From the NCBI GenBank assembly GCA_036172245.1, contig JAYWIR010000002.1:5642001-5706000 (forward strand): 64,000 bases of DNA, read 5' to 3'. Every line of letters starts with the position of its first letter. Positions within the stretch are counted from its first letter, which is position 1. A program made the translations under genes and the position numbers. A model generated the notes under the pieces. That model ran no database searches. It saw nothing but the letters and a program-made list of their open reading frames with translations, and was not told the origin of the DNA. Below, piece by piece: positions 1 to 46,699 of the stretch. This DNA comes from Raillietiella orientalis. Taxonomy: Eukaryota.

Positions 1-112
1 CACGAATCCGTCAAGGCCCATTCTGACTATGGAATCTCTGTTTCCCCAGAGTGCCATTTGCTTGCAAGGCGTAAATTGATCTCGAGCGATATGCTATCAA
101 AAGAATACTCAC

Positions 113-3100
113 CACATATTCCTTTCGTACGAGTCCTTACACAGGAGTAACCTAGAGGACAAGATCCACCTGACTGAAGACGCTTTCCAGTGCTGCAGTA
201 GTAAACTAGAAAGAACAGCGCGCGGTGTTCAGTTCCCATGAATCTGAGTTCACGAGTGTTTTCAAGTCTCGGATCAAGGAGATGCACTGATATGCTTTCA
301 TTTCTGCGCACAAAAACCGTCGATTCTAACTGACGGCCGTTCCGAAGGGCTTTAGCAAACTCAGCGAAAACGCGGGCAACTTGCGCTATGAATTCGAAAG
401 AGAAAAGCCTGCACTCGACGGAGCCGGTAAACTGGATGACTTTATGAATCACTCAAAGAATCTGCCACTTTCTTTTAGTCGGATTCCAGTCACATATTGG
501 GATCGAGTCCCTCGTGTTTTCTCGGTTGCTTTGGAAATAACAAGTTGCCGAGATTGCAGATTCATCCCCATTCAGCGATCACTTTTCACGAAGGCATTCA
601 TATGAGAAGAAGCAATATTTAAATTCAGTGAAGTAATCATCTTACTGCATGCTGCTGCCACTGAATCACATCTTCCTTCGCAATCATCAGGAACTGCACA
701 GGCACAGTTCATTCCTCCTACTTCTTTGGTGCAGGGAGCTAGCAAAGGAATGCATCGTTGAAAAGACAATTTGCGATACCCTGCACCTTCCAGTCATACT
801 TTGCAAACAGATTTACTTGGTCTTGTGCACTTAAGAGTGACGCCATTCAATGCTTGGCGTCTACCTAAAACCTTCTGGGATAAAGCTGCTTCTTTCTCCA
901 CAGCATCCTATTCGAATGTTTCGAAAACTGATCTTTCCTTTTCTAAGGCAATTCTCAATTTCTATATTTTCGACGGTTACAACACCATTCATTGCCCATC
1001 ACACCAACAGGATCTCACAATGAGAACACTGCGTCGTTTTCCGGGCCTCGATGGAATCTTTTCTAGTGCCCCTTGACTGCAGACCACCAGTTGACAAGTC
1101 GTCACGGAAAGACACAAATGGAATGCGCGAAAAGAAAAAATGAATTATGCTCCAAAGGAGGCAAAAGGTTTCTGGATTCAGCCCTAGTTCTCTTCAGAAA
1201 ATCGTTCATTAGCTGGGCCTGGGAACAAGGATCATACATGGACGACATAGTGAACACGGAAAGTCATCAAGAAACGTCTCCATCTTCCAGAGAGATCACG
1301 CAACGAATACTAATGTGGCGACCGCTTTAAGGGTTTTTTGAGACATGACAGTCCATCTGACGTTCTTGTCATCGACAGGTGCTTCGAGCTTTTTCCGTCT
1401 CCCGACCCCGCAGTCTTGGACCTTGCTCGGACACTCCGCGCTTCGTAGGTTCCAAAAGAACGATTGCTTTATCAAGCGGCGTACAGGAAGGTTCATGAGG
1501 TTTCCGGCCATGTCCCCGGACATGACCGGAAAGTTTGCCCGTCCGAGTGGTGGATGTTCGCCGTTTGTGGACAAAGAGCCGTGAGCCATGCTAGACTCTA
1601 AACACAGTAGTGCTCGATACAGCTGAACGTGCACGATGGATTGAAATCAGCTTGGTATGGTACGGTGTATTAGGATGATATGGTATTCAGCTTGGTATTG
1701 ATGGATGTATTGATGGGAGTATTGGTATGGTGTCTATGACGACCGAGAGCGATGAGAAGGAATCAACGTGATTTGCTTTGAATCCCGAGAGATTCAGCCT
1801 CACCACGAAACGGTTTCAAACCAATTCGTGCAGTCGACGGACCCGTTATTTGATCAAAACCGTGCAGCAATGTCAACTCTTCCAACTCAAGGTGAGTCTG
1901 AGGAGGTAGTTGGCTGTACAGTCTGTTTCAGGCACGCGACCCATTCAGTCTCTTTCAAAAGTTTCGAGGACTTTCAAACACATCGTCGGTTATGCTGAGG
2001 TGTTCGCTTTCGGAATAGGTTTCCTCGCTTGCTTTGGGTCAGTTGTCAGGACAAACACTTTCTTACAGTGAAGAAGCAAGAGATACCACTCACTGCACAA
2101 TCCATCGTGACAGACTCCGCTTGCGCACTCTGCAGGTGATCTGCAACTGCAGAGAGAAAAAAGTGGATGCTTCCGGCAGTCTGGAACTAAGAAACAGCAA
2201 TTCTTGGGATAGATCTCTACCACTTTCGATTTTCGCATCATAGAGCGACTGTAAACATGTTTTACGGGCTTCCATTTGACTGCTTTGAATAGAATGATTA
2301 CTAATAGTGAAGAATCCGTAAAAGCAGCAGTATTGGTAGCAACAAAAGAGCGAAACAGGAATTATCCTCTCGTTAATGCAGTGAGGAAGGCAATCATGAA
2401 AGGCTTACCGCAAACCCCATTTTCGCATAAGAGAGGACGGCTGCATGTGGTGGGCACTTTGCAAGGGCACCCTATGTATCTATTGATTCTGGAGCACCAC
2501 GCTGAAATTCATTTTCCTTAATCAAAAATGCAAAACCATCAGCTTACTACTACCTAACATTATCGAACAGCCTCATTAAGTGATTATCATCCAACTCCTT
2601 CTCATTTCATAAATACATGAGATACGAGTGTCAACTTACCAGCATGCAACAAATTCCATCAGTGATGCGAGAAATGGCATGGAACGATAAGCACATATCC
2701 AGGGACGGTTCATGTCTTCAGAATAAGGTGAGTCGTTTTCATATGTATTTTCTTATTAGCTATTTCTTTGTTTATAATGTATGTAATAACTTGCGGGGAA
2801 AGACAAAGACATGTCTTTGGAGCTTTTTATAAAGCTCACAAATCCATAAACCGCCCAAGATGCTTCGTTCTTGCATGCCAGCAAGTATAGAAACCAATGA
2901 AACGTATGCCATGGAAGAAATTGATGAATCCAAAATCAGCAATGTGCACAAGCAACGAATCGCCATAGAATCGAAAGTTTAAGTGGTTCCTGCCTGTTGG
3001 TAAATGGAAGCTTAACTACACTTTTTTCCTTCGTTCTTCTCGCCGAATGGAAGAGGACGAAAAAAGACGCACAACCCTCCAAGTGAAATGACCGAACGCA

Positions 3101-6100
3101 GAAATTCAAATGCAGCGGTTGAGAATTCTTAATTACTTTTGTACTCAACAAAACAGCCATCGAAACATGGGAAACTTTCCTGAAGCATGGAAAACAGTCC
3201 ATCCGCTAGTGTAGGGATGAAAAAGCTGGAGACTGTGATGAATCACAGCAGCGTACGAATAGATTGGTGCAAGAGCAAACTTTGCGAACAAATTCATACT
3301 CTTTCTTTAGCGCCGATTCGCAAGACAACCCGAACTGTCAAGCAAGCAATTCGGCAACCATCACATGGCAACTTGCTGTGGGTGCCTTTCGAGCTGTAGT
3401 CAAGTTCGCTGTAGAACATGGTGTGTAATAAATAGGGAAAATAGTCCAGCAATCAGTTGGGTTCCCAAAGGTGTCCGGTTACTGTGCTCCAGGTAGTGAT
3501 AGACATTGTAGGCAAACTTGAAAGTGAATCTCGCTGCGCTCTTTCTTCGCAAACCTTCAAAGGACTCTCTAACAAAGATCAGAGATGGAGAAACCAGACT
3601 CGATCACATGAAATGAAGCATTAAGGCATTGAAGTTTGGAATGATTGTAGACGGTGCAATTTAATTAGCAGCTCTCGCTCGCACTTGATGCACCAGAACG
3701 AGACCTAAGTGCCGGAAAGTCGCACTTGAGTCTAGTTCTGGTGCATCAAGTGCGAGCGAGAGCTGCTAATTAAATTTCACTTGTCTACAATCCACAGCAC
3801 CAAAGACAGGAATGCCAGAGATTTGATGGATCTGTGCTTTCCTAAATCAAGCAGTTTCTGTTTAGTTACCTTTGAGAAACAGTGCATACGAAGAAGTTGT
3901 GGCTACACTGAAAAAGGCAAGCTCAGTTGCAACTTGCTTTAATCAGACATGCTCTCAGGCATGATGAATTTAGGGTGACTGTATACGAATACCGCTGTAA
4001 AAGTTTTGATCAAACAGTTCCAGAGAAGAGCAATTTTCTTTCTTCAGAAAAAAAAAATCATTTCGTCGTACATGGAGAAACACTTCGCAACCTCTAACTT
4101 TCCATACTGACCGCACATGCTGTTTTGGCACTCTCCATTTAGGCAATCACTATTCCAGGAACAAGGACATCCCGGGGATTTTAGGACTGAACGACAATCT
4201 GGAACTGTGGACAACATAAATTTAGCAAGGTTGTTGTCGTTATCGGCGAAGCTTATCCAGAAAATAAAATCCAACTTTAAAAGTACAGAAAAGAGAAAAT
4301 GAATTTTGGGAAGATCAAGACAAGACAAGAGATTTTGATTTCTTTTCGATATCCATCCTGGAACTGTGGAATTCGTATCACTATCAGGAATGGATTTATC
4401 GTTATTTTTAGAACGGATACATCCGATCATTATTATCGTGAACGCGGAAGGGGACAGAATGTCCTCCAGAAGAAGGATGAAAGCATACCACAGATATGCG
4501 CATTCTCATCGCAGATGAATGGGTGTCTGCAGTCAGCAGGTAGAAAACAGTCACAGTAGACAGCTCGACCTCTTCCCGCACAAGTGGCTGAAATGCCAAG
4601 AATTCCTTCAGTTTCTTCCAAACTCTGTGAAAACAGCATTCTGGTTCGCGAAATTTCAGCTTATTTGTGGAAAGAGACAGTTTGGGAGGATATTTGGGAT
4701 GACTCATACCTCTTCGGAAGTATGAGGCATTCTCGATCGAGTCAATGGAGTCTCACAGTGAATGCAACAAATGGGAAAACTCTTGTGCTCACCGCATTTT
4801 CCATCCTTACACATGTGAGACGAGCAATCTTTTGGAGACGAGCAGGGACAAGAAGGTGGGCTGTGCCATGGAAGAGAGGGACATTTTCTTCTAATATAAA
4901 CTAAAAATAAACAGAAGCTATCATTGTGAACATGCGAATGGTTCTCCATTCAACTAAGCAACCGAAACCATCTATAGTTGCAGTATCATGATCCGCATGA
5001 TAAAAAATGAAACGGACCTGCAGCCAGGCTCGACACACATGCTAAAAAGATCTGGAGCATAGTTTCTTAGCGCCCGGAGACTTTCATTCCAACTTCTGCA
5101 TTCTTGCGATAAGAGAAAAACTTCGGAAACAAAGTTGCTCAGTTTGGTACCCAAAAGATTATCACTTTCTTAGAATGGACGCCAGAGTTTTCTCCAGAAT
5201 GAGGCGTCCATTGATCGATGCAATGGGCATCTACCATCAATGGCTTGCTTATGCAATCCACATCATTAAATGAACTGTTTGGAACACGGCAAACATGTCT
5301 TTCTCCATGAGATGCAACAAAGATATGGCAGCTAAGAAACGGGGTTGCCACTCTGTACTTTTAAGTTCCTGTGTGCTGACGATTCGTTGTAGCGTTTCTC
5401 TCCCTCGATGTATCAACAGATGCAATAGCCTTACTGGATGTCAAATATGGAAGGATTGTGAAGCAATCAAGAGTATCCCACCAACGAACCCACGAATTTT
5501 GTTTCTGATAATCGCTGCTAGAGACATATGGGAAGATTTCGCAGCCACTGAATTGAAGACAGCAGAATACGGTTCTATCAGAAACAAAATTCGTGGGTTC
5601 GTTGGTGGGATACTCTTGATTGCTTCACAATCCTTCCATATTTGACATCCAGTAAGGCTATTGCATCTGTTGATACATCGAGGGAGAGAAACGCTACAAC
5701 GAATCGTCAGCACACAGGAACTTAAAAGTACAGAGTGGCAACCCCGTTTCTTAGCTGCCATATCTTTGTTGCATCTCATGGAGAAAGACATGTTTGCCGT
5801 GTTCCAAACAGTTCATTTAATGATGTGGATTGCATAAGCAAGCCATTGATGGTAGATGCCCATTGCATCGATCAATGGACGCCTCATTCTGGAGAAAACT
5901 CTGGCGTCCATTCTACGCTTGAGTCTAGTGGTGGTGCATCGAGTGCGAGCCAGAGCTGTTAATTAAATTGCACCTGTCTAGAATCCTTTCAAACTTGTGA
6001 CAACTTTGAGCTGTCACAACTTTGAAATGATTGTAGACAAGTGTAACAGAGAGTGATGCCATGGGCACATCTATCTTTGCTTAATCTCAAATACTTTCCT

Positions 6101-9100
6101 TATTATGCAGTACTTACTGCATAATGCATCCTTGCATTCCAATTCTGAGACACATTTATGTCCATTGCAGGGGCAGTACACAGACACCGACGATTTTTCA
6201 CACTGTGGCCGAGTTTCTAAGATTAAAACATTTTGTTTTTTCTTTTTTCTCATTATTGTTTTTTTTAAAAATGTAAAGAATTAAAAGTTTTGAATTCTCT
6301 ATACTCAGAAATGATTATGAATGGTACATTATGTGCCGCAACCAAAATGCTTTTGATTATTTACTGTCAAATTGCATACACTCTTTAATTGCGCCTCTAA
6401 GAAATCCATATCGAAAAGAAGCACAGTGAACACAATCCTACAGCATGGGTAGCTGTTTTACTAACCGCAAAATCCTGAAGAGCATTTCAGATGTTTTGCA
6501 CAATCCATGTTCGACCGACAAGGACAGTCTTCGACACCTAGAAACTCCCTGCAAGAATCTGCAAAAAACAGTCAGTGCCTTTGTCATTCTTTTCGGAATT
6601 CGATTATTCCAAATGCTTTGGTCTGTGGATATTTTTGAGGAATAAGAAACAGTAAATTGAAGAAAGAAAGCATGAAGATCAGCTTTCCAAACCACGGTCA
6701 CTTGTTTTATGAATACCCCAGCAATTCATAGGAAGCTTCTCTGGCTACGAAAGCAGATGGCACTAAAAGTGGCAGATATACCAAGCTCGACGTTTAAGGA
6801 GCAGATGTTTTTCGGAGATGTTTTGCGATGAAATCATGCAGCATCCCATGTTTATTTTGCAGAGGTTTCTTTAAGCCTGCGAGTGCATCTCTTTCTGTTT
6901 CCTACTGAAATCACTCAAAAGAGCACAAGTGGTTTTCTTTGCATTAAATCAATTTCTTTGCCGTATTGAAGTGTGAAAAATGAAAAGATGTGAAAAATGT
7001 TTTGCTAAAGTGGCGTCAGACTTTGTCTTCTACTTACGGCACGATCCACTTCTGCAGGTTAGACTTGCGCATTCATTACTGTTTTTGCAGCTGCAACCAA
7101 CAGGTTTAATTGCTCCTCTGCAATCAGGAACTGAAACACACAAGTCTCAGATCTGAACACCAAGGGATGTTGATTTCCGCTGCTTTCGTCGCGATATGAA
7201 AAGCGTTTCCCGAAAACATCTGCGAAAAATTGAGAAGAAAAGGAATGCATCAAGGCATACAGAATTCCAACAGCATGTGTCTCTTTAAGCTCCATTTTTT
7301 AACTGTAAGCTCATCGCAGTCTTTAAAAATTTCTTCTTGCGGAAAAAGCACGATTCTCACACTATTGCATTGTCAAGAAGTACCGCCCAAGAGAAGCAAG
7401 CAGATTCCCGTTTTTATTTTGGCTTTCAATAGGGAAGGGCACTTCAAATGGTTTCTCTAATCCCTGCATGAAGAATGGAGAAATGACCTCCTCTTCATTT
7501 GAATCGCTGAGTAATTCTTTTGTTTCTTTCTGATCTACACTGTCCTTAGAACGGTTCGGTAGGAGGACATAGAAGCAGCATCATATCAAGCCCATGCATC
7601 GTTTTCTTTCCAAGATTTCCTTTTTCTGCTGCTTTTGATCAAATTTGAAGAGAGAGAACTACTGCTTCGTGATAGCTGACGATAATTCTCCCTATCTTTC
7701 TGTTACTTGTATTAATTTCTCCTTCAGTTCTGCAGCAAGCGTTAGGTTAGTGTTTCCTGCTTCCTCCCACGAAACGTCTAAATCTTATGCTTTCTCTAAA
7801 GTGGTTTTGTCAGTTGTCAAGGAGTTCGAGATCCTTGTTTCAGAAAAAGCTTTTACTCTATGAAGGTGCTTTTCTTAGCACTACTACTGAGACAGATGTG
7901 GAGACTGGAAGTTGATAGGAGGAAGGAAAATTTTAGAAGCAAATCTAGTAATCCCAGATTTACGAATTTCTTAAACGTCCGAGTTTTCCTTTTGCATGTC
8001 ACTGGATGCCCGCTGGTTGACCTCATTGGCTATCTTTCTCACGTGAAGGATTCGCTTAACGCTTGATGTCATTTAAACTATCGGCTCTCTTTTTCGATTT
8101 AACGAACGATTGTCTTTCGTTTTGATTCTCAAAGGATGACAAACACCTGATGCAACAACTCATAGAGCGAAATCGTGTAGTAAATATCGGAAAATTCGTC
8201 TCGGCACATCATCGGGAAGTTGTGTTTGCTGCGTACGAGAACAGTGAAGCCTGGACGATGAGGTAAGCATTCGCTCTAGGAAAACGTTACTTACAGCACT
8301 TGGAAATGCTCGGAGAAACTTCCGTACATGCATACCGAGGCGCACAGGGACATGGGCAGTTGGCCTTTCCCCAATCAGGAATGCAGACATCTGCAACACA
8401 TGAGAAAGATTCTCACTTCCGCATATACCTTGCCAACCCACTGGCTTTGATCTCCGGATCTTCCAAATTAAAGATAAAATCGTCTCAAAGTAAAAATACA
8501 AAAAGACAAAAAAAAAGAAAGAAAGAGGTACACGATTTGTTCAGTTAAGAAGTCCGCATGCACTGCGACTGAAACGAGGAACAATCAACCCATGCTCGTT
8601 TAGAAAAAGGAAAACAAGCTGTTATAGTATTGTAAAAGACAATCACACATTAGTTCCGAAACAGCTTTGCACTTTTAAGAGTGGAAAATCAGTTTCGAAG
8701 AACACAATGTGCTTCTGATCCCAATGCACATTCGCCAATAATAAGTCCGATAAAGTGCAATAATTATGAAGTATATCATTCTTAAGTCAGGTTTCAGTCC
8801 CAGATTAACGATACAACTTCCACGAAATCGTTTCTTGCAGTCAAACAAGAACGAAAAGAGAGCGTTTTTTCCCTTTGCACAGCAGAACCAAAATAAAGGT
8901 AAAAGAAAACGCACCGCATTTTCTTGCCGAGCACGACTTTATGGAACAGTCATCAGGGGTCCAGCAGGGACAAGATGGCTGCAAGGGTTTTGCAGTACAA
9001 ATGACCTCTGGTAAAAAAAGATGATGTATACGCTTGAAATTTCATGGAAACCAGAGAATACTTTAAAGAATTATACAAAGTGGATATCTCAGATTCTGGT

Positions 9101-12100
9101 AGCGCCACCGATCCAAGATAGCAAGAAAATGGAGTGCAGCCTGCACGTCGAGCAGGTTTCAAAAACTTACCGCAATGTCCCTTGGAGCAGCCATAGTGTG
9201 GCTCGCAGTCCAAATCTGTGGTGCACTTCTGTGGTGCCCCTGGAATTACATACGAGACAAAACGCTGTGGAAATTAGCTTCGCTGCAGATTTCTCTGAGA
9301 TCGTAGATCAGTTTTAAATGGCGCGAACAAGATTATGGTTATTGTACACTGCAGGAGTCGAATTAACTGGTTTGCAGAGGTGGAAAAATGTGTCACGACG
9401 ACAACTAGTGATAGGAAAGCTCTCCAGAAGTATCGACACACCTTAGGATCCCGCACTGAAGACCAATGGGCTTCCTCGTGGATCTCATTTGTCATTCTTT
9501 TGATTTATTTAAGTCTATTCAGCTGCGCTGTGCATTGCTGAGAGGCAGGTCGACTGCCTTTATTGTAGAAACACAGGTTCTAGCCTTTGCTTTGTGTATT
9601 GATTATGAAACCGGAGGAGTTCTAATAGGGAAAGAGATTTTGTGGAACTGGAATTTCCGCTGCCCCCCGGTGTTTCTCCCATAAAGTGGCAAGAACCCAG
9701 CACAACGATTCAACATCTCCGTGGATGTGAAGTTAGAGTGATTTTAGAGCAAGTTTTCAGAAGGCACTTATTGTTGATGATTTTCAACCAGAGCGGCTTC
9801 GAAAGCATTCCTTTGCATTTGTCTGCACGGGTATGCACGTTGGATACCATTGAAATGACAAGCTCGTAAATCTCACTCTATATTACTCTGATTGTGTGGA
9901 TGTGCTCCACATATAGTCATTCTGGAGTGAACTCTTCGGAGTGAGAACGGTCTCAGTGCACAAGTGAGATAGATTTCCGAACCGAAAATTCAGCAAGCTG
10001 CAAATTTTCACCACACATACTGACGAATGTTTGCATGCCTAATCGGAATTATATCTTCACACATGCCGAATGAGTCCAGAACGTTTCACTGCATGTTGTG
10101 ATCAATGGCTGCTGTTTCTGCCTATGCAACCAATAAGATGAAAGACTCCGACCGTTTTTCTCGGCTTATGAGCTCGTATGCAAAAATTACAAGTTGAACA
10201 CCTCATGTTTTGTGAGATGGAAGCCATTTTCGCAGATGTACAGAATTACTTCGGGACACTCTTATCTGGCAAAGTCGGCAGCTAAAACTCAGTTTTTTGC
10301 TTGCGACTTGCCATCAGACGTTCAGCTTTTCAGTGCTCGAATTAGATAAAGCGTTTATGCACTTGGAGCAAAGTGTTTATTAACGTTATTTGTGCCATTC
10401 GCAGAGTCCCTCTTTTTCTTTTTTTTTTTTGGAAGAGAGAAAAGCATTTGATTAATGCGTGTCAAACTTATTTTGAGAGCACTTACCACATAGCAGTTCT
10501 TCGCAATTTTTACTTTCACACCAAACAGAGGTCCTGCATGAACAAGAAGGATATCGGGGAAGTCTTTCGCAGTCGAGTTCTATAATCAAAGAGTAAGAGT
10601 ATTCAAATATTTCTAGAGCATGTCGCTCATTTGTGATTAGGAGAAAACAATCCTGTTTATGAGTGCTTGAAAGATCTTACCACAGGCTTGATCCTTACAC
10701 AATAATCGATGATCACATTCTTCAGGAGAATGGCATGGGCAGCCTGCCGGTTTGGAAGTAGGTGAACAATCCACTAGGACACAGAAAAGAAAAATCAGGA
10801 TCAATCTCTTCTTCAATGTGATTCTTAATCTGATAAGATCGTGTTCCAAAGTTCTAGAACTATATCGAAAACCTTGCAGTCTTCGGGATGAGAAACTTTT
10901 CCCTCAAAAACACTCCACTTGGCACAAATTCCATCTTCCTCGTGACATAATCTATAGATTCCCAGAGTAGAAAATGAAACCTTCATTCAGAATGTGCGAA
11001 AGATTTATTAGAGCCTACAAAACTTGCTGTTAACGAGGAAAACATTCGTTCTACGTGATTAAAATCAGGAGTTGAAATCAGGTTTGCATGAGACCGACTT
11101 GCATTTTCCTTGATGTAAACGTTCCGTCTGGAGAATGCAACACCGGAAGATGAGCTTGTAGCAATGAATGCTTAGCAAATCTGCGTGTTCCCATCTAAAA
11201 ACCCTCCACGAGGCAGGAATCTTAGATGTTAGGCATCTTCTAATCGAAAACCAGGTGGCTCGCAGCTAGGGAATGTGCTGCGGCAACGGAGACGAGGATT
11301 TACAATGCAATTGGCGCGCATCTCAAGTATTCCAGTTCTTTGGAGCCATTTCTTGAATCGAAGAAAGCACTGTTTCCTCACTGATCCAAAGTCTCAACGT
11401 TATCTGCTCACCATCCAGTGGGGCAAACTTTTCTTGTGGAACACTGTGGTTCCTTATGCAGAAGTCTTACTTGGACATTCAGGATTCTGTGAAAATGTTT
11501 CCGAATGAACGTGCTTATTCTCCTGTTGCCTGATTCATTTTATAAGTGGAATAGGAATCACAGTGCTGTTCGTGACAGAAAGAAATACCAGGTGTTCTGG
11601 AGCTCCAGATAATGATCAGTCATGCATGTTGGATGGGAGACAAATTGCAGGTAGTCATTGTCTTTTTATGAAATGACTACTTTTTTATGAAAAATTTCTG
11701 AAGGCATTTGAACCAAACGCAGCATAAAAAAATCATTAAGTGCCATCAGTGATTCCCATTCTCCGAACACGAAGCAGTCAGAGAGTTTTTTTTTTTGTTC
11801 ACCCAGAGAGAAAGGGGAAAAAATACTCAGCATGGTGGTCGCGTTGATCGTGGTACAGGAGCATCAATCTTGACATCGTTTCGACAGAGCAATATAGAAA
11901 GAGTGAAAATTTGGATTTTCCTACAAATTTCGATGGAGGAGCATATCACGAAAGAGGTTTCCGTTGTTCAGAATTGACATGCCAGTTGTAACATGGGAAT
12001 GAACTTACTGCAGTGACTTTCGAAGCAGATTCCACTCATGCACTTGTCGCCAGAAAGACAAGCGCATCCCGCGGGCCGCTTTTCACTCGGACAAATTAAA

Positions 12101-13846
12101 TCTTGGACAAATTTGATGACCTCTTATTAATCAGTGGACTTACTGCACATAAGATCCGTGCATATGTATGGATACGTGCAAGTAGCATTTGGAAAGCAGG
12201 GGCACCTGTATTTTCCTGGGGTTGAATGACAGCGTACTATAATTATAAGAGGAATTAGGAAATATGCCCATCAGTGTGGAGAATGCCTTTACCACACACT
12301 CCTGTGGAGCTACATTCCAAACCATCGATGCACGCGATTTTTGATGAACATGGACACTTATATGCAACCTTCTTAGACGTTGAGCATCCTAGGTTTCATT
12401 CAATGGCATGAGAAGATATGAATTTCTCGGATGTGAATGTGCAAAGTAAGATTCACATTCACATCAGAGATAAAAAAGTGTTAAACAGTAAGAAAGGAAT
12501 AGATAAATGGATTGCCCATTCGTGAGAACAGTTCTTACGAGAACTGAGCTTTTTGTCATTTCGGTCCAGTGTGCAAATTAATCAAGTTAATGATTAAAGG
12601 AAATAGGAAAGCGCGACACTACCATTCATTTTGAGCTGTATAAAACATTAATGTACTATACGCGGGTGCTCGCTTGGAAACAAGTTTCTGCTTCCTTAAT
12701 CAATAGAAGAAACGAAATGCTGAAAATACAGACCTGGTATCTTTGGCTCTGGACCTGAAATGATAAATCCCAGATGGAAAAACTTGAAGCATGCTAAATA
12801 GAATCATGATCTTGAATCATGATGAATAAGGATAGCAGATCAAAAATTGAAAAACATATTGTCTCGATTCCTATCAGCTATTCCGATTTCATAAAACATT
12901 TGGACTGGATCGAGCAAGCTGCGTTCCAGTCCGCCATAAGTGATACACAGGAAGACCCGACTCCGCATTGAAGCACTTTGCAGTAAGAATCGGTGTTTCA
13001 GGAGACCAGTTGTACTGAAGGACGTCCGGACGGCACGGCCGGCCTCATCCCCAAACGTATCATGAAATGGTACTGTATGATCGTCATATGAGTAACGTTT
13101 GATGGCAGAAAGGCAATGCAATCCGCAAGTTCCATATCTCGCTGGCTCTTTGCGATCTACGCTTATAGATTCTCAGACGAGACCGTTAGTCGCAGTACTT
13201 TGATCCCTCCTTTATTCTATTCTCCCTTCGAAATGCTCATTCATGTAACTAATTGACTATTTATTAAATGCAAACAGAGAAAGATCCCATCTCTGTGCCT
13301 GTGCTTGTAACCAAGAAGGGACACAGACAGGATACGAATGAAGGAAAGCAGCTTTCTATTAATCTACAAGGAGGCGTCTCGGGCGCACGCGCGCAAGAAT
13401 AAGGCAGCGCACACGGAAATAGAAAAAGCAATGAAAATGCCGAGACTGCAAATGGGTGGATCTTCATTGCCCGAAAATGAATGTGCGGAAATCACATCAT
13501 CCGCTATATGAAGCGCACGGATGTTATCAACGCTGAAGAACCAGAAATCCTACTGGAAAGTATGCATTCAAATGGGGTACTCAGTTGAAGATCTCAACAG
13601 AAGTTAGTGAGGAGAAATGAGCGCTTCGAAACTGGGTTGTTTTCCCATCCACTTAAAGTTTATATAGCGACATCATGACATTCAAATGCATATCATGAAG
13701 CGGAAGCAGAAGGTAATTACATTTATTTTGGATGCATCTTCCAGTCGGTGCACAGCAACCTTTACATTCGTCTCCTTTAGCTTTTGAACATGTACAGTTT
13801 TCATCCTTAATTAGTTGTTGCTTACAAGGTACATCTTCTTTAGGTT
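113..13846 (-). CDS. Exons 13-32: array of 19 single-exon Cys-rich modules (consensus C-x8-C-x-C-x5-C-x4/5-C-x4-C) plus one 21-bp linker microexon
   Basis: Examples: PDCRKHPLFSLCSCRSPAECASGVCHDGLC (2094-2186), PDCRGAIKPVGCSCKNSNECASLTCRSGSC (7038-7130), DCSPTSKPAGCPCHSPEECDHRLLCKDQAC (10681-10773), WCSRINRYIGCPCKVPTTCSRPLLCENGVC (2409-2501). All are phase 1-1, 12 of 19 are exactly 93 bp, and nearly all end Cys codon + 1 nt + GT. Confidence 0.85.
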
Positions 13847-16800: not shown

Positions 16801-19800
16801 CGGATTTTTTATGTGCAGTCTCCATCTGGATGCAAAACAGTGATTAGTTTCAAATTGAGTTTTTACTGTTTCATTTTGTTGTTTGCCTCGTAGATACCCC
16901 GATGAATCCTCTCTGTTTTGATCGAGTTTTCTCAGTCCATGCATTCAAAAGAATGGAAAAAAGGCGCGCTTTCCATCGATAGGATTAAAAAAAAAAAAAT
17001 TCCTCCTTCCAAAAGGATGTGCACCTCGCCACAGCCTAATGCACCTATCGCACTTGTTCAGGACGTGATTCCCTAACAAGTTCTTAAACAGCCAAGAATA
17101 CAACTTTTCACAATCATGCAATCTGTTTGTGCTTCATACAACGATCGCCAAATTTCATAAGAATTGCAATTCTTTGCAGTTACAATAGGAATGGTTTTGA
17201 TCAAGTTTGTGCTGGTGGCGAGAGCAATAGTGGCAATGTGGCGAGCCAGCTTGGAGCACCGGAGTAATTTAGGAACATCGGGAAAGCAGTTGTAGGTTGC
17301 GAACTGTTTAAAATGTTTTCAGCGTCATTTGCAATCTCTTTTTGTTTTTCTACTTTTCGAGATGGTTGTGAGAGTATTTGGCAACCATAGCGTGTTTGTT
17401 GGTCACGCTCGAATGAATCAGGAAGAAACCTTCAAGAGCTCGAAAAAAGAAACAAGCAAGCAACAAGCTAAGGACAAGCGAAAGCGCAAGATTCGTGAGG
17501 CTTAAGTGACTTTACAGTGAAGGATTCTTGTAAATCCATTGCCAAAATGTCAAATTCTATTTATCTACCTGATACTGCATGTGTCGTTAGGAAGCACCAA
17601 AGAATAGATACAAGGTTGATAGCAATTCTCGGACTCATCGAATTCCGATGACCACTGCACAGATTTCTGGCAGCCAGTGTCATAAGAAACTACATGTTCT
17701 TTGGAGCAGCGCGCATCATCTGCAAATGGACTATTCCTTTTCGCTAAGAACGGGATTCCGCTTACATGTTATCATGAATTTCCTCGACGCTGCCTTGTAT
17801 CCTTGGTCGTTCTCCACCCTACAGTGATATGTTTTTCCAGACAGGTCTGCAAGGCTGCTGCTTATTCTCAAGTAAAGAGGCGACTCTTCGGCCCTGAGAT
17901 ATTTGATGGTGAAGTGAGTAATCAGTTTTCGAACCAGGAGTTTGTTTCTTACGCATGAGGAATCATGTGGGCATCTTTGTCCGGATCAAAACTGGCGCTG
18001 AAAGGTGTATTGGAACTCACAATACAAAATATCGTCGTCGCCCAACTCTTCGTTTGTGGAGGAAATACAATCTTCACTTTGGGTTCAACTGGAGATAAGA
18101 AATAAAGCTGCAGTATTTGTATTTATTCCGGATTTCACGTGTACCCACGGAATGGTTTCTCAAACAAAAAAGAGCTTTGGTATGATTAGACTACTGTTAC
18201 GAATTGCAAAATCTTTCAGCAGGAGCCCATGAGCGACATAAATAAGTGCTTGCTGATCCAAAACCTGAGGCTTCGTAGAGTACTAGAAAAAAGGAAAGTA
18301 GACTAAAATCCCAAGAAAGGCAACAGCTAGAAACAGATTTATTACTGGCTGTGGAGATCACTAGTCACATCTTCAGGTCATAATTTTTGTCAACTGAATA
18401 CACTAAAGGAGGAGAAATATCCACGTTTCGTTGATTCTTCTGAGAATCGGTTCAACAGTAATGTCCGGATTCCTTTGGTAGAGACCAGGACAAAACAGAG
18501 AATTCCTGGAACATCTTTCACTGCCTTGGAAATACCATTTATCCCTTGCCAACGAGTGGGACACAAAGGAAAGAAGCAGAGTAGAGAAACAAAAGACTGA
18601 AAAATGTAACTTAAACATCTCCAGCACAAATTCAATTTCAACTGTGTTCTCGAAAGACAGGAATGATACGGATAGACAAGAATGAGTTCGTCTGTTTATC
18701 AAATTGCATACGTTGGTTGCTTTAAAGCAAACTGAGAAAACACGTATTGGATACATTGACGTCACTCTGTTTCATAAGAATGACTTTCACGCTATCTTTT
18801 CAGGGGCCAGCAATACAGAGGAAGCTCCTGTCAATTTCTAGTACATAGTTTGTATGTGCTCATACGTGCACACTTTCTCCCCTTCACAGTTTCATGCCAG
18901 TTCCATCTGTCCAATAAGAACATCACCTCCAAATACTTTTATCCCTCGCAGGAAAGAATTGTCAAGTCATGCAGATACAGTCTTTTACATCATGCCAGGT
19001 AAGCATAGAACGTGACGGCAATGTATCCGTTGAAGCGGACACTGAATGAGTATGCTCTTGACTATTCCACACCAATCACACGAGATCACTGTCACCTTTC
19101 CTGTTCCTTAAAAAAATCTCTGTGGTTTTTTCTGGATGAACGAGTTCTTGCTGAGTTTAATCTCCAGTGTCTTCAGTAAGACTGACTAAAAGAGCAGGTT
19201 CATGTACGTGCAAGGTAAGAGGATTCCAATATCCTATGCTTTACCGGCTTAACTAGTTCTGAACGCTTCGTAGATGGAAAGCTGACAGTATTTAGCAACC
19301 GAATAATTTTCGATTCATTTCCTACCCATAGGGCACTAGCACGCATCGAGAACCTTTCATTAACAGGAATGAAAGTGATCTGCCTTGCGTGAAATATGTT
19401 TCATGAAAGAGCACTATGAAATTCGGGCCACTGCATTTCAAATTATATGACCTGCGAAATAAAGTACTAAATCACATTGGCCTTTGATACTCTTTAATCA
19501 AGATTCGCAAAGCCGCAGAATCAGCTTTCAGATGATGGAAAAAAACATTCGTAGTTGATGTGATTGCAAGTACTTCCCGATTCCGAAAAGCACAAGATGC
19601 TTCATTCTAACGACGAAGCCTTCTCAAAGACTTAGCTTCTCACAAAGATCTATTTACACAGAGATCCAGTGTACAGAAGGTACGCTCCCTACTCAGCATT
19701 GCTGCGTTAGACCACAATTTTAGGAATAGAGCAGTGAGTCTAACCCTGGTGATGGAATGGATAACGTGAAAACTCCTTCAGATTCTCCCAAATCAAAACG

Positions 19801-22800: not shown

Positions 22801-25800
22801 AGCTTTTCGTGGAGACAAGGAACATATATCTAACAAAAATTGTTATCAAAAATGATTATGGTACAGTATTTTCACTTGCATAGTGGCAAATATATCATGA
22901 AAAAAACACGGATAAGGACATTTACCGAAGCTTTGCTTCAAAGGAAGACGCAAAGTACGAAGTAGTATTTAAAAGACTATTCCATTTACCTGTTGGAAGA
23001 AAAGGTAAAGAGTCAAGCAATGGAATCGGCGAGTGCCCAAATCCTCCATCCATCTCCAAGCCTCCATGTCCCCTGACTTGAAGGTAACATATGAGGTCTT
23101 TCTGAATCAGTACTACAACTGTATGTTTTCCAACGATTGGAGCTTGTTCAGTGTATACAAGTTTCCCAAAATCAGTTTCCTTTTCTTCAGTACCAAAATG
23201 TGGCTTTTGAAATGTGATATTCATGGCATGTAGGATTATGTTGGGTTCGTGAGGAACATAAGGAGATGGAACGATTTCCGAACAAGAAATAACAAATGTG
23301 TAATTTTTAATGGTGCTGTCAATATCAAAAGAGAATGTTTTTCGTTTAGTGTTTACTTCGTAATGGAGTAAATCCTCATATAAATGATACTGAACAAGGT
23401 AATCCATGAGAGTCTAAAAACATGGAAAATAAAACATTAAATTAGTCTAAATTTGAATATTTTATTACCATACATGTAAACATCTCAGCATTGAGAAACA
23501 ATGGCACTTGGTGTGTCTGTCTTTCAATGGATATTCATTTCATATAGCACTGTCACTCGTTTCCGCTTTTTGTGCAGCGCAAGCGTGGATTCGGTTGCTT
23601 GATTCAGAGTGCTTCAAGCAAATCACAAAGCAAAAACGATCCGTCAACATCAAGAGCTTAGAGACAAGATAGCTTCTTGAATTTTTCAGTAATTTTACCA
23701 TCAGAAGGAAATAAAATAATTTCGGGTGGCTGAGATTCTAATACACCGTCTTTTCGATTCTCGCTTGCCTGTGTCCACCAAAATTTATGATTCGAATGTC
23801 TCAGATCTCAGGTTGCTGAAAAGACTGTAATGGGTAAAGCTGCAGCACCAGCACATTTGTTTTCAGCTGCTTGGGGTGGGTGGGTGCTAACTCCTTTTTC
23901 ACAGCCTTGAGTCCTTGGCGCGAAATACTATACTTTAACACAGTTGCATATTCTAAAGAAGTTTTTTTCTGACATTTCCAAAACCGAATCCGATCTGTAG
24001 CATACAAAATCTTCCGACTTTTCGTTTGAAACTGGAAAGTCCCATTTTGATTCAACTCCTTGTTAGCGAGTAAATTTAAATTACAACATGAAACTCTTAA
24101 TTTCGAACGCTATCGTTTCACAAAAACAGTGAGTTTATGTTTCCTCCCTGTTATCAAGAAGTTAATCAAAGGAAGTGCATTAAAAGAAAATGAAAGATAA
24201 ATCATTAAGAACGGGCAGACTTTATTAAGCATTCCATTAAGAATTTCAATCTATGAACCTTCAAATCCACATTTTGAAAGCAATTAGAGACCTATTTCAA
24301 CGAAAATTTCATCATAGTTGAAATCTAATGGAATCAGACAGAATATTTTCTACCTCTTCTGAGATGTCTTTTTAGGTTGTCTTCAGTAACATTTACTCAT
24401 TGATACTGTTCCTCCAGATAGCATTGTGTATGTTTCCGTACTGATTCCACTATTCTACTAATCTTTTCACCTTCGAAGCTGTTCTCGTGCAAATTGTTTC
24501 CAACTCGGATCTGTTCAAGCACCGCATTCTCTTCGATGCGCCTTCCATTCCGGATTTAGCGTGGACTGCGTTCAAATGCCACGCAGCTTTCCAAATGAAA
24601 TTTGCATCCAATTCCGCATGTTTTGTTAATTGAAAGCAAACAACGCTCGTAACAGAATTTAAAAACCACTCTTATCCAAATGGCAACACGTTTAGGGTAT
24701 TTCCTGGTTTCCCCTTGATTTTGGAGATTCCTGTCAAATGCCGGATCACACATCAAAAGTGTGCCGCATCTCAAACGCGACTTGGTACTGAATTCAACGG
24801 ATGATTCAGAAATACAGTCGCATTGATCAACGTCCTCATGCAATGCCTTTCATCTGAGATGTACATTATACCTGCAGGAGATACCTTTTGCTTCGACTGA
24901 ACGCTTCAGTAATTGCAAATGAAAACTCTCTCTTCCACACAATTCTTCATCTCTTGGTTGCTGCTGTAAATTTGGTTCTATATGTAAATGGATGCGCAAT
25001 GTGTTTTTTGCTGGTTTCGATGTAGTGAAAATCAGTCTAAAATATGAGGTTCAACTTATTGCTCTTCTTGTCAGAAAGCTCGTCTATTTTTCTATTTCTA
25101 TCTGTGCTGCATTCTGTCCTCGAGAGCTGAAAGTTTCTCTTGCAACTCTTGTCTGCTTGAGGAGTGGTACGCTTTCGGCCATCGCTATCATTCTCCATGA
25201 ATTGGTTTGTCTACTTTACATCCGTTCGGTATTCGCTTTAGGCACAATCCCGCACTACTCTATGAGCTACTCTACTCTACGTCAAAGTGAAGATTTCTAA
25301 ATCCTCACTTTGACGCTGAGTCTTGGTTCAGAATGAGCTGTCCTGTATTTCCGGACATGCTTAGACCAGCTGCCGTATTCCAATTTTATCACTGAACTGA
25401 ATTCAACTGTCAGTTTTCTGTTGAATTTACATACAAACTGTTGGACCGCATTCAAGCCACGAATCTCCCTCAAAAGTAAAGGAAGAAAGAACAAACACCT
25501 CTTCGGATGTGTTAGACTTGGTCTTCGTTTCTCTTCGCTTGCAAGTGTAAGTTTAGTGGAAACTCTCTGGATTACACATAGAGAGCTCCCTCCAAAAGGT
25601 GCTTTCAATGGAAAACTTGTCAAGGCAGCATGTAAGAGTCTGATTCACATATGACATTTGGAATGCTATCGAATTAACGAATGATTAATTTTATTTTGAG
25701 CATCACATCACTCTCGACCAAGGGGAAACGAGCACTGAGGAGCGAAATGAATTTGAATGGAAACGAAAACATGGAAAAAGGAAAAGGAAACTTAGGAACG

Positions 25801-28800
25801 CCATCGTGCGCAGGCGCCAATCTGTCCTGTTCAAAGGCAAAATAATTTTGTCTACTAAACATGGACACATGAAAGTTCATATTGGAATCCCAGCACCCGT
25901 TCCAGACAGCACATTTGCACTCGAGCTCGAATGAGTCCTCCTTGTTTGGAGCAGCGTGAATCGCGGACGTGACTGCTTGCAAACCAGCTGCAAGAAAAGT
26001 TTCCTCACAATAGTTCGCTGCTGTTTGCCATTCGCAACTCTTTGAAGCCCGTGACTTGCAATGCTCAGCTTTCCGATGTCAGAAAATGTACCCAGAAATT
26101 TTCCTTATGAACAAATTGGGAAGTGCTTGGAACTACGGTATAACAAAGACTTTTTGCTTTCATTTCTCCGATTATCGACTCTGTTTACAGCCATCCGCTC
26201 GAAATGCTGCCTTTCAAAAGAACACTCAAAATTCAGTGTGAAAGGAAACTGAAATCACAAGCAAATATTGCCCTTTCTCTGTCAACTCGCAAAAAGTGTG
26301 TAGTAGTCCTGTTCTCCAAAGTACAAGCAGCTCGTAGAAGCAAAGGCTCACGCCCAAGCTGATTTATCCTCATTTATTCAAACAGGGTCTAGGAGGGTGA
26401 TCCTGAGTTCCTTCTGAAGTCAAGTGCTTCCTTGACTCTTCTGCAGGATGAGTCCTCATCGAAAAAAAGTAATGAGAGTGATATCAAAATAATATTTGAT
26501 ACTATTAAAAATAATTTTCCGCAACCCATTCAACAAATTCCTGTTCCACCATGCATTTTCTGCACATGCAGTTTTAAATTTCCATCTTTGGGGCTTCGTT
26601 GTGAGTAATCCTTCTATCTCCATTACATTCCCTGTGAAATTTCCTTATAACATCAAGAGTGAGAGGAACCACTCATCTCTCAACCCATGCGCCCTTCTAG
26701 CCTTCTTTTAGTCAAATCGTGTACTCTGCGCAATGCTCTGAAGAATAAAGATATTCCTCCTTAATAAGCTTCCGTTAAGATGTCCATTTGACACGCGGTT
26801 ACTCCACTATGAGCGATCCATCCTTTCCAGAAGGACAAGTTTGACAGCTCACAGGTGTCTTCCGTCACTTGAATCAAAGTACCATTCTTAAGACTTCAGT
26901 TTGAAAAATAACTTTACAGACAAATCAACTACGCTCATATGATTTTCACAATTGCAACAGAACCGACCATGGCTCACAATTTCTACTTGCTACATTGGTT
27001 GCTGACTGATTTGCATTGCTGCACATCCCTCATCGGAGGAGCCTACACAGAACACGTTACAACACGCTAATCCAAGGCTGAGTTTTGAAATTTCACAACC
27101 GCAGTCCTACATTTTTTCCCCATGTTCGGCGTCTGCTCTCAAGAGTGAAATGGGAATCTTACTTATGCACTAAGTTTCATCACAAGCTCAGAAGAAGTGA
27201 TAAATATGGTTTTGTTTCCGTGCAATGTACTCAACTCGCATTCTTGTTTGAAAGTTGCTTCTATCATAGATTTATATTTCTTATCTTGACATTCATGGGA
27301 ATTCATTGGGAATCCCTCCTTCTTGCTAAGCTTTCCTTGATGGATGTCTGCAAAAAAAAGTGACCCCAAAATGACGAAAGACATCAACCCTTACTTAAGA
27401 CACCATTAAGTCCAAAAGCGACAAAAGAATGGTGCTCAAGTTGGAGTAGTAGTTTCCATTCTTTGAATTTTCCAGTAATAAGTACAGGAATAAAGTATTG
27501 CAGCCAAGTATAAACATAAAAACATGACTCATGCGTATTCACTAAAAAAAGCGGTTTTTGTTTTTCACAATTCATCATGAAAATGGGTGGAAATTTTTCC
27601 ATGAATATTGTTAAGAAAGCTCTCACTTACTTTGAGACTCTTATCTTCTCCGGTAGGATCAAAGGTGAACATCAGGGATGTTGTGGAACGCAAAATGTCA
27701 TGTGTCAAATCACTACAGCTTGAGCTCCCAACAGTCATATGCAGATACAGAAACTGTAGTCCAAGAAATATCAGCAGTGAATAGCAATAATACATTGAGT
27801 GATTCATTTTTATAGATACCGTGGAATAAATTGCACTCAACATTCATTGTTAGAATCATTAACATGTAACTGTAATATCTATAAGAACATTTTGAAGAAG
27901 AAGATCATTTGCTCCATAGCTTATGCGAACATTAACATAGTCAAGCTTGTAAGAGGGATGGATCCCTGCGATATTAGTGGTTCACGTAAAATGATAAAGA
28001 ATTCCAAAAGATTGTCTGCCTCTTCAATTCGTCAGTTATCGCCAAGGTCACCGAACTTGAAAACATCGGAAAGATCACCGTCTGCATCAATGAGGAAGGA
28101 AGTGAGCGATGGGAAAATGAGCAAGCGCTGAATGGTTGACAAGTCGCTCACAGGAATCAGAATGAAATCCGCACAAATTGGTTGGCTGCATCGGTCTGGT
28201 CCAATGGTGCTATTCTATGTAGGATGCCTAGCTCCACGTGAAGATGACAGAAACATGAAAAATCAAGCCTCAAATTTCAGAGCAAATGGAAAATATTCTG
28301 GATGAAACAGGTAGTGTCCGGGGATAACTGGAATTAGTTATACGATCAGAGCTGTCTTAAAATAAGTGAACGCAGTCGGAGTTGCCATGTCAGTGGCGTA
28401 ATAAGAGGAGAGGGATCAACCCAAGGTATTCATAGGCAAGGCACAACCTTGCAACCAAGCATTTCGTGCACCCACACCGGATCAAAGAAAGCACGTATGC
28501 AAGTCCAATAATTCTTGGGTTATTCAGTTAAACGGAGAAATCTGTCTGCACAGTAATGCAATATGCGTGCGACGATGTGCTATTTGATAAAAAAAACAGT
28601 CTTATTCGCTGAGTGACTCACATAAGCTGTACGCGTTACTGTTTTATGTATAAAGTAGAGTATGATCTCTTAACATAAAAACTCCTTACGAAAAGGCTAA
28701 CTTTCCACCCAAACGAGAAAATTAGAAGCTTTTTCTTTTCTCTGAAAAAACAAAATAAGTGTTTTAAATAGGAAAGAGACTGTCCATAGCGCAATGCTAA

Positions 28801-35405: not shown

Positions 35406-36863
35406 CTGAAATTAACAGACTTTTCAAAACTTCGTCACAGGTCAGCACGCTCATGTACACTAATCTGTACGCACATCGGTACTCAAAAACGCATTCTGAC
35501 GTTCTAACGGAAACGATACGAAAGCATTTGAGGAACGGACTGCCAGCCCGGAGACAGAAACAACACGCAGGCCGAAGTGGGCGGAGCAACAATGGAAGCG
35601 CCCAACAATGGAAGGAAAATCAGCAGCGCGAAGGGACGGGCTGTCGCTCGGGGAACGCACGGGATGCCCGCGCCCTCCGACGTCACGGAACGTTCCGGAA
35701 AGTTCGAGATTCGCATCCCTTCGGAAATCTCACCCGCGAAAACTCGCGGCCGGCATCATCCCCGCAGAATCTGCCGCCGTTTTCCTGCTGCGGTGACCGC
35801 AAGCAAGGCTTCCTGCATCGAAAAGAATGGGGCTCCATGAAGGTCGCCTATTTGCTCCTCCAAGTAGAGTTTCCCATGGCATTTAAACGATTCCGTGTTG
35901 CTCCGAAAACGCGTGCTTGGAGTTCCCGTATTTGAGCTGCACGAATGCCAACGAGCTGACTGTGCCGCTATTCCACAAGAACACGGTTTCGGAGCTCTTC
36001 TACGAGGGACACCTCTGCACGCGTCTGTGTCCTATGCTGTGTTCCATTGCGCCCAAGCTGCAATGCAAATTTTTTCCGCGTTCAAGTGGAAATCCGCAGA
36101 CGCAAGAGCTCTTGCCACAAAACGTACTCTCCAAGATTCCTACCAGAACCTTGGAGAGAGTTTTCTCCGGTGGAAGGACCAGTTTGATGGCCACCGCCTG
36201 ATTTCAGAAGACGAACGGATTAGAATTCCTGCATTTAGCTTTAGGGTAAAAAAAAAAAAAATTCCTGATCAATCTTCGATTCCTTCCTTTTGCCTGGATC
36301 CAATAATGGATCACAAAGAATAAAGTAATCCGGATCAGTGATGGGCGTAACCTGTCACAACAGACATGACCTGCAGACCTTTCCTGAGCGGCCCTCATGA
36401 GCTGTTTGGAGCTTGAATTGAGCTTCTCGTAGCGAGATTCGCTGGTCTGCATGCGCCTACCTAACTCATACGAAAGAGAAAATTCATCCGCAGTGTTCCT
36501 CCGTTCCTCACGCAGTTCGTTTTTTGGTGGACCATGGATTTGGAGTGATGACCTGCAGCAATGCAGCCACTTACATTCCACCACAGCATCTGGTGAACTT
36601 TTTCTACTTGGCGATCGCCATCCGATCTCTGCCACTTTCCGGAATGGTGTGCTTAAAGACCGGTGAGCTCAACGCGACATCCGTGACGAGAACATCGGTA
36701 CCTTAATTCAGCAGTCTCCTGAGAATCTTTCTCTTGTAAAGTATGTGGGAAAGATAGGTGCCCGCCGCAGGAGCGCTGAGCCACCAAGAAACGCAACTTG
36801 GAGAGTATGAAAAGAAGCTGAAGACGAGGTATGAAAGGCTGCAATAGCAGTCAATGACACCAC

Positions 36864-37800
36864 TTGGAGTTTCACGTCGCATCATCGCCTATGAAGGCCA
36901 CTTATCCAGCTGCCCCAGTTCTGCCCTCCCTAAGGGGAGCAATGGACAGCCAACTGCCAGCAAGGTGGGAAGCGACCTGTGGGATAGGGAGCAGGAAAAA
37001 ACATCTGGATTCATGGACAACTAGAGAGCTGGCGGACGCCGCGACCACGAGTGTCCCACCAAAAGGACTCTTATTCTGTAGAGAGCTACTACAAATTCCT
37101 CCGGAGGAGGAACAGTGGCTCCTAGCGTGTTGGAACAGTGCTACTTTCCCCCTCAAGTGGCAGGAGACGGCGACCCTGCTGTTGCACTGGGACTTCCCGT
37201 GCAACGCCCACCGACATTACTGGACCCGGAGGAGTGTAAGCCCGAACTGCGCCTGGTGCGGCAAAAGAGAGTGTCTCCCGCAGCTGCTCGTGGATTATGT
37301 TGCCCTCCACCTCCTGTGGGAACGCTTTGCAGCGTTCCTGGGGATCCCCAAGGTCAATACCAGAGACATTTTGAAGCACTCTACTCTCGCACGACGCCCT
37401 CTCGCCAGCCGCATCCCTAGCAGCACTTTGCTGCCTACGCGGGATAGTGGCTGTATGGAGCTACGCCAGAGGAGGCCAGAACGACAGTGGTGCCATCTAT
37501 TTTGCGGTCCTCTTCTTGAGGATAGCGTCAGGATGGCCCCATCTTGGAATCCTGAAACAGGAACTTGCTGGCATCCTCGAAAGGATGCGGATGACGCCCT
37601 CCAGCACCCGGTGATCCCTCCCAGATTCCTCACTCCTTCCCCAATTTTTTGTATTTTTTTTGTTTTATTTTTTTCTTTTTGTTTCTCTTCCCTTCCTTTT
37701 CCGTGTCGAACCTCGCCAGCCTGAGCGCCGGTTCTCGGCAGATCCTTTCTGTACATTCTGTAACATCTTGCCACTGACGTCTAAGTTTTATTTTTAATGA
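36864..37800 (+). mobile_element. 3' end of an L1/Tx1-like LINE (zf-RVT region plus T-rich 3' UTR)
   Basis: KWQETATLLLHWDFPCN...PNCAWCGKRECLPQLLVDY is a CxxC..E..HLL..C-type zinc motif, followed by a T-rich tract at 37644-37700 and AATAAA near 37800. Confidence 0.65.
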
Positions 37801-37809
37801 ATAAACGCC

Positions 37810-39830: not shown

Positions 39831-39849
39831 TCGGCAGCGGAAGGGGATG

Positions 39850-46560: not shown

Positions 46561-46699
46561 ATAAAAATGTTTCACCAGGTTCGGATGAACCGCAGAATTT
46601 TGAATTATAGGATTTTGAATTATTATTATTTTGAATTTTGAATTATAGCTAGCCACGTTGTCATATTGGAAGTCTGATGTCTCTCTCCTATGAGGTATC

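Follow-up and report, generated by a model that had tools for sequence, protein, structure and literature searches.

The window analysed here is a stretch of 64,000 nucleotides (nt) from Raillietiella orientalis (GenBank assembly GCA_036172245.1, contig JAYWIR010000002.1, positions 5,642,001 to 5,706,000 of the forward strand). On its minus strand, between positions 113 and 13846, we observed a real run of symmetric exons, each of which encodes a single small module with a fixed scaffold of cysteines (Cys) and almost free loops. We consider it probable that the array encodes a constitutively spliced extracellular rod of tandem disulfide modules that arose by the ancient growth of a two-exon cassette. 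Under this explanation, the locus would be a minus-strand animal gene whose tandem modules number 18 or more, each with about 30 residues and six Cys on its own phase 1-1 exon, and all exons of the array would normally be included in the message. The encoded protein would be secreted or anchored in the membrane, and the array would give it a stiff extracellular rod or stalk stabilised by disulfides. The array would have grown long ago by copying of a cassette made of a B module and an A module (defined below), and the copies would then have diverged down to the scaffold.

Reading the splice borders on the minus strand yielded 19 exons, each bordered by an AG acceptor and a GT donor. The lengths of all 19 are divisible by three, and every exon reads as 2 nt, a set of whole codons and 1 nt, i.e., in phase 1-1. 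The length is exactly 93 nt in 12 exons, or in 13 if the inner of the two donors of exon 1 is used. This reading confirmed the exon layout proposed in an initial annotation of the same DNA, namely 19 one-module exons, all in phase 1-1, with 12 of them of 93 bp. The introns are 42 to 1610 nt long; most donors are near the consensus, and 10 of the 19 carry GTAAG. Exon 19 is followed by a donor at position 112; therefore, the gene extends past the left edge of the window, and the number of 19 exons is a lower bound.

The modules fall in two registers of equal length. In register B, one residue precedes Cys 1 and the loop between Cys 4 and Cys 5 has five residues; in register A, two residues precede Cys 1 and the same loop has four residues. 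Exons 2 to 19, in the order of the gene, are the following.

12293..12388, minus strand: module exon 2, 96 nt, register B, 6 Cys
12144..12236, minus strand: module exon 3, 93 nt, register B
12009..12101, minus strand: module exon 4, 93 nt, register A, separated from exon 3 by a 42-nt intron
10681..10773, minus strand: module exon 5, 93 nt, register B
10487..10579, minus strand: module exon 6, 93 nt, register A
9171..9239, minus strand: half-module exon 7, 69 nt, 4 Cys (C-x5-C-x5-C-x4-C), phase 1-1 kept
8915..9007, minus strand: module exon 8, 93 nt, register A
8295..8390, minus strand: module exon 9, 96 nt, 6 Cys with altered spacing 8,1,1,5,9
7038..7130, minus strand: module exon 10, 93 nt, register A
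6466..6558, minus strand: module exon 11, 93 nt, register B
6118..6216, minus strand: module exon 12, 99 nt, variant of register B
4793..4900, minus strand: module exon 13, 108 nt, variant of register A, leader IYIRRK
4489..4587, minus strand: module exon 14, 99 nt, variant of register B
4112..4204, minus strand: module exon 15, 93 nt, register A
2409..2501, minus strand: module exon 16, 93 nt, register B
2094..2186, minus strand: module exon 17, 93 nt, register A
646..738, minus strand: module exon 18, 93 nt, 6 Cys with spacing 8,1,5,3,6
113..205, minus strand: module exon 19, 93 nt, 4 Cys (Cys 2 and Cys 5 both absent), donor at 112

The array stands alone in the window. A six-frame scan of the whole 64 kb with the strict pattern C-x6-10-C-x-C-x4-6-C-x3-6-C-x3-5-C produced 13 matches, all on the minus strand within 2095 to 12386, and none outside this interval. 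A profile of the modules, when run against the window, recovered its own 18 source modules (all on the minus strand, 30 to 12395) and found nothing comparable elsewhere, the next match being a 12-residue fragment with an expectation value (E) of 0.006. Within the long introns, the same profile detected no decayed extra modules.

Exons 2 to 19 (113 to 12388), when joined, form an open frame of 560 codons with no stops, and 104 of the encoded residues (18.6%) are Cys. No more than seven hydrophobic residues occur in any 19 consecutive residues of the product. The 17 linkers between modules have 2 to 6 residues each, and 13 of them have only two or three. The high Cys content, the absence of a hydrophobic segment and the short linkers are, taken together, as expected of a rigid extracellular rod.

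The Cys scaffold described in the initial annotation, C-x8-C-x-C-x5-C-x4/5-C-x4-C, was found in its exact form in 10 of the 19 modules; the others vary, and exons 1, 7, 9, 18 and 19 deviate from it. The number of Cys is even, six or four, in all 18 modules of exons 2 to 19, as expected if disulfides pair within modules. The mean column identity of the modules is 32%, with three Cys columns invariant and two more nearly so. Besides the Cys, what is kept is the length of the module and a few positions occupied by Pro, Asp/Glu and Gly. Among the 10 modules with exact spacing, the identity at non-Cys positions is about 15%, which bears out the earlier description of loops that differ almost completely; the DNA of these exons is 40-43% identical.

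A comparison of the introns with each other revealed no similarity of 40 nt or longer, save for a small palindromic element present twice. Given this lack of intron similarity and the low identity at non-Cys positions, the duplications of the modules must be old. To judge from the sequences, what was called hypervariable appears to be ancient divergence.

We also considered whether the array could be a decaying, unexpressed remnant of a gene. Some modules are degenerate, such as the half module of exon 7 and the four-Cys module of exon 19, and no similar predicted protein was found in two large protein collections. Such a remnant, however, would hardly have kept 560 stop-free codons over 18 exons with all AG/GT borders and the phase in place, nor an even number of Cys in every module at the level of non-Cys identity given above. 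Long-term purifying selection is needed for the open frame, the kept borders and the even Cys counts, and we regard a pseudogene as highly improbable.

The two registers alternate, a property that was absent from the initial annotation and is new here. Along the gene, the order of the registers is BBABABABABBABABABA, so that neighbours differ in 15 of the 17 pairs (permutation p 0.002). The introns show a related pattern: those leading from a B module to an A module are shorter than 300 nt in five of eight cases (42, 101, 163, 284 and 222 nt), while those leading from A to B are mostly long and shorter than 300 nt in one of seven. We ruled out that the registers are sequence subfamilies, since identity is equal within and between them and only the spacing differs. 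The simplest reading of the alternation is growth of the array by repeated duplication of a two-exon cassette, B then A.

The initial annotation had raised the idea of a Dscam-like system, in which subsets of the exons would be combined into many isoforms; it also allowed for the inclusion of all modules, which is the option we favour. Such a device for splicing diversity, either Dscam-like or in the manner of the length tuning of titin, could use the fact that any subset of symmetric phase 1-1 exons stays in frame, and the loops differ almost completely from module to module. Poor pyrimidine tracts were seen at some acceptors, e.g., those of exons 2, 4 and 16. Moreover, a passage in PMC9222585 describes titin-like giant repeat genes with mostly symmetric exons as extensively alternatively spliced.

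On the other hand, phase 1-1 exons are the usual carriers of modules in the membrane and secreted proteins of animals, as a passage in PMC7259759 states. With symmetry as the default in extracellular mosaic proteins, it is in itself no evidence for combinatorial use. We observed that the most widely shared 8-, 9- and 10-mers occurred in 6, 4 and 3 of the 18 introns, compared to maxima of 5, 4 and 3 in shuffled controls, and a repeat search found no conserved intron blocks. The absence of conserved blocks, and of words shared clearly beyond the shuffled controls, argues that there is no docking or selector system, and we saw no sign of a Dscam-like device. Each exon encodes a whole module and not an alternative version of one part of a domain. 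A mild additional argument is that skipping of single exons would break the A/B alternation. We therefore rate a splicing diversity device as unlikely; ordinary tissue-specific skipping of some exons, by analogy with titin, is possible. A broader version of the idea, a family of secreted or membrane-anchored proteins in this genome whose chains of strongly diverged, knottin-like six-Cys modules would serve as a recognition repertoire through many non-identical modules, several paralogous loci and possibly in-frame skipping, seems to us very unlikely.

Two repetitive elements were observed in the introns. A palindromic element, similar to a miniature inverted-repeat transposable element (MITE), occupies positions 3654 to 3780 and has a second, partial copy at 5918 to 5986 with 86-88% identity. 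The two MITE-like copies sit in the introns that bracket exons 13 to 15 (300 nt in total); they could in principle pair and loop out these three exons, and each copy can also fold on itself. The intron between exons 12 and 13 contains an inverted repeat, 5171 to 5510 and 5576 to 5915, whose 340-nt arms are 100% complementary and lie 65 nt apart. Two origins are conceivable, a foldback element inserted very recently or an artefact of the assembly.

The full six-Cys module belongs to no curated family. In a Pfam search, none of the 19 modules scored over a gathering cut-off, and 12 of them had no listing at all at E up to 10. The remaining seven had listings below the cut-off: hEGF, EGF_Tenascin, DUF7107, Toxin_12 (twice), LEAP-2, Adt-1 and Lustrin_cystein. 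Families of the EGF type were listed for two modules, with 16.2 bits against a cut-off of 29.3 for hEGF and 13.6 against 25 for EGF_Tenascin. DUF7107 was listed for the half module of exon 7 only (16.8 bits against 24.6), and EB or Dickkopf_N for none of the 19. Pacifastin was dropped as a candidate, as Pacifastin_I was unlisted for all modules at E up to 10; its Cys spacing is also unlike that of the module.

Toxin families require a separate comment, since the initial annotation had noted a toxin-like look and had suggested that peptides of about 3.5 kDa might be released by proteolysis. The nearest language-model neighbours of the module were spider knottin toxins (Atlas features of one module gave 0.83 for Toxin_12 and 0.77 for Dickkopf_N, DUF7107 and EB; leads only). 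The two listings of Toxin_12 had 14.6 and 13.7 bits against a cut-off of 21, and a search of PDB sequences with the module profile gave a single match, a toxin with E 1.7. With all toxin-family scores under the cut-off, the resemblance is a weak lead. Toxin_12-type knottins have an adjacent Cys pair in their pattern, which the spacing of the module lacks. As to the released peptides, there are no spacers between the modules, and just one of the 17 linkers has a dibasic site, the IYIRRK leader of exon 13, so that release is unlikely. Of all the alternatives, a polyprotein precursor cut into knottin-like defence or toxin peptides appears to us the least probable.

The fold of the module was approached with an AlphaFold model of a single module, with the 18 paralogues as the alignment. 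A VIA-align comparison of this 30-residue model with 48,161 chains gave no match at Z of 2 or higher; a model of this size is probably too small for either VIA-align or Foldseek. Exon 19 lacks Cys 2 and Cys 5 together, a single case that would fit the 2-5 disulfide of a knot fold (1-4, 2-5, 3-6).

Searches of large protein collections gave matches to a part of the module. When the module profile was run against 1.84 billion representative proteins, 48 matches were found at E of 1e-3 or lower and four at 1e-10 or lower, and none reached 1e-30, the level expected of a true relative of the array. No array-like relative from other organisms was found among these representatives. Given that no match was strong, the collection also lacks a predicted protein for the gene in the window itself. 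The top match was a protein of 2255 residues with tandem Cys-rich repeats, which from its sequence looks like an adhesion-type receptor and which matches only positions 1 to 16 of the profile (C-x8-C-x-C). Nearly all other matches cover positions 7 to 30, and three of the 48 span from position 2 or 3 to position 30. A word-based protein search with the module alignment, whose first row has 41 residues, retained none of 972 candidates at E 0.01.

We ran Pfam on 18 of the 48 profile matches; 16 of the 18 list DUF7107, EB or Dickkopf_N at E of 0.01 or lower, and 11 pass the cut-off of DUF7107. The matches of this type cover the four-Cys C-terminal part only, with a best E of 1.4e-12, and Cys-rich profiles can match by convergence. 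Judged by sequence similarity, the C-terminal four-Cys unit of the module, present by itself in exon 7, is similar to a mini-repeat that is widespread. The literature searched contained no mention of DUF7107, and at the level of titles and listings it offered nothing relevant on Cys-rich repeats encoded one per exon or on the EB module in arthropods.

Besides the array of modules, the start of the gene needs to be placed. Three features bear on it.

13721 or 13754..13846, minus strand: atypical Cys-rich exon 1, 126 or 93 nt, phase-1 acceptor, two possible donors
13389..13467, minus strand: candidate first coding exon, ATG at 13467, 26 residues, donor C/gtgcgc
22990..23413, minus strand: candidate upstream coding exon, 424 nt, acceptor tttttag, phase-1 donor CAG/gtaaat

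Exon 1 encodes seven Cys in the arrangement C-x9-C-x-C-x7-C-x2-CC-x5-C (spacing 9,1,7,2,0,5). Both of its donors end in T and exon 2 opens with GA; joining the two exons directly produces an in-frame TGA. Therefore, exon 1 must be joined to the array via another exon or be a part of an upstream gene.

The candidate first coding exon sits within the 1.3-kb gap between exons 1 and 2. The peptide it would encode has a basic start, a hydrophobic core of 13 residues and small residues at -3 and -1, which resembles a signal peptide and would suggest secretion of the product. The last base of its donor, C, together with the GA of exon 2 makes CGA (Arg). According to a passage in PMC7259759, the classical layout has a phase-1 intron directly after the exon of the signal peptide. 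Across the whole window, crude criteria for such exons picked out four separate sites on the minus strand and one on the plus strand, and the number expected by chance in the 1.3-kb gap is about 0.05. We put the chance that the array is a gene of its own with its own signal peptide at roughly even.

Other signal-peptide-like exons with an ATG and a phase-1 donor were seen on the minus strand at 27714 to 27807 and at 17569 to 17638. The former lies upstream of the exon at 22990 to 23413 and could start a separate gene for the 'head'.

Alternatively, the array could be the stalk of one larger gene that has no signal peptide next to the array and in which a head, encoded at 22990 to 23413 and beyond, is followed by exon 1. 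The upstream exon has strong splice sites, and its phase-1 end matches the phase-1 acceptor of exon 1. Exon 1 and module 2 have in common a start of C-x9-C-x-C. In-frame exons that could connect exons 1 and 2 exist, with 57 nt at 13389 to 13445 or 21 nt at 12734 to 12754, the latter noted by eye only and not listed by a systematic exon scan. Still, the direct junction gives the TGA described above, and the 57-nt connector would put a hydrophobic, signal-peptide-like stretch inside the protein.

For the possible head, there are weak leads to hemicentins. For the upstream exon, Pfam listed the galactose-binding-like domain of hemicentin (GBD_Hemicentin, PF23560) at E 0.17, with 12.2 bits, far under the cut-off of 27; the Atlas score for this domain was 0.86-0.87, also a weak lead. 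An AlphaFold model of the upstream frame, made with no alignment, was all-beta with a predicted local distance difference test (pLDDT) score of 43, and a PDB sequence search with this frame had no match. A word-based protein search with the 163-residue reading frame retained none of 328 candidates at E 0.001. Furthermore, a Pfam scan of 311 minus-strand open segments with at least 28 residues (120 + 135 + 56) in 13.8-36.5 kb detected no domain, VWA included. The exon could encode part of a head, either for the array gene or for a neighbouring gene, and we take the single larger gene to be a credible but slightly less probable arrangement, with a chance below even.

Several points weigh against the explanation of the array as a constitutive extracellular rod. 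The role as a rod or stalk follows from the architecture, and the variable loops may bind. The AlphaFold model of the module had a moderate pLDDT of 69.9, and Foldseek found no fold match to it at E up to 10. For the growth by B-A cassettes, we note that the register labels of modules 9, 18 and 19, three of the 18, are based on leader length alone. The putative signal peptide at 13389 to 13467 was recognised by inspection and with crude criteria alone. Finally, the 3' part of the gene lies beyond the window, and two models compete for its 5' end.

The architecture has well-known counterparts. Mosaic proteins with EGF-like or LDL-receptor class A (LDLa) modules are alike in having one disulfide module per phase 1-1 exon and long tandem arrays. 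They are also alike in having, as is probable for the array, a phase-1 intron after the signal peptide, a layout covered in a passage of PMC7259759. The module described here, however, is neither EGF nor LDLa. In its spacing 8,1,5,4/5,4 the C-x-C pair comes second and not at Cys 4-5, a departure from the EGF consensus. That consensus is C-x(4-7)-C-x(4-5)-C-x(5-10)-C-x-C-x(8-14)-C. The spacings of the module taken in reverse (4, 4-5, 5, 1, 8) follow the order of the EGF/NIM-type consensus, which we take as a coincidence of small disulfide scaffolds.

Proteins with DUF7107 (PF23416), EB (PF01683) or Dickkopf_N (PF04706) domains are alike in the four-Cys unit C-x5-C-x4/5-C-x4-C, but are without the N-terminal C-x8-C-x-C part of the array modules. 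The matches of this type have repeats of 24-48 residues and the partner domains FG-GAP, TIG and But2.

The exon clusters of Dscam are similar in having many neighbouring exons of similar size that encode variable versions of a scaffold. In the array, by contrast, the product of joining all exons, each a whole module, is a coherent repeat protein, and the intronic docking or selector elements of Dscam were not found in its 18 introns against shuffled controls. Titin, nebulin and obscurin are alike in the high share of symmetric exons and in the repeat domain per exon; isoforms of titin are described in a passage of PMC9222585. Their repeats are intracellular Ig, FN3 or nebulin repeats, compared to the 30-residue disulfide modules of the array. 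Differential use of exons is documented for titin-type genes.

The G+C content varies along the window from 39% to 66%, with about 40% in the left half and 60-66% in a block at 54-64 kb. A kinesin-5 gene (KIF11/Klp61F) with very long exons was observed on the plus strand at 50377 to 53676 (Pfam Kinesin, E 8.5e-100, and Microtub_bind). Its best matches were KIF11/Klp61F proteins of arthropods (termite, ant and barnacle) with at most 75% identity, and arthropods made up most of the top matches; further matches, with 70-73% identity, came from echinoderms, molluscs and a sponge. Given these matches, the array gene is taken as animal, perhaps of an arthropod that has no annotated close relative.

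A G+C-rich first exon of an amino-acid permease lies on the plus strand at 57427 to 58299 (AA_permease_2, E 2e-14). In the region from 36000 to 47000, with G+C of 49-55%, long open frames are numerous and overlap each other on both strands. A minus-strand frame at 43143 to 43736 looks by eye like a reverse transcriptase and had no Pfam match at E 0.001.

The array is real, intact and anciently diversified, and its module type is unclassified. One module per phase 1-1 exon is textbook animal architecture and hence ordinary; novelty is confined to the type of module, the super-repeat with its two registers and the evidence on the boundary of the gene. For the six-Cys module of 30 residues, we found neither a curated family nor a relative of solved structure, and the 1.84 billion representatives gave no array-like relative. 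A recognition repertoire, if true, would give an invertebrate a counterpart, built from disulfide modules, to Dscam or to variable lymphocyte receptors; combinatorial use of the exons, if true, would be a new kind of diversity generator, and nothing observed favours it. Whether 'head' and 'stalk' make up a single gene is a question for which the in-frame TGA and the signal-peptide-like exon are relevant. The clean A/B super-repeat records how the array grew, and the locus offers a test of whether splicing is constitutive in long symmetric-exon arrays of tiny modules.

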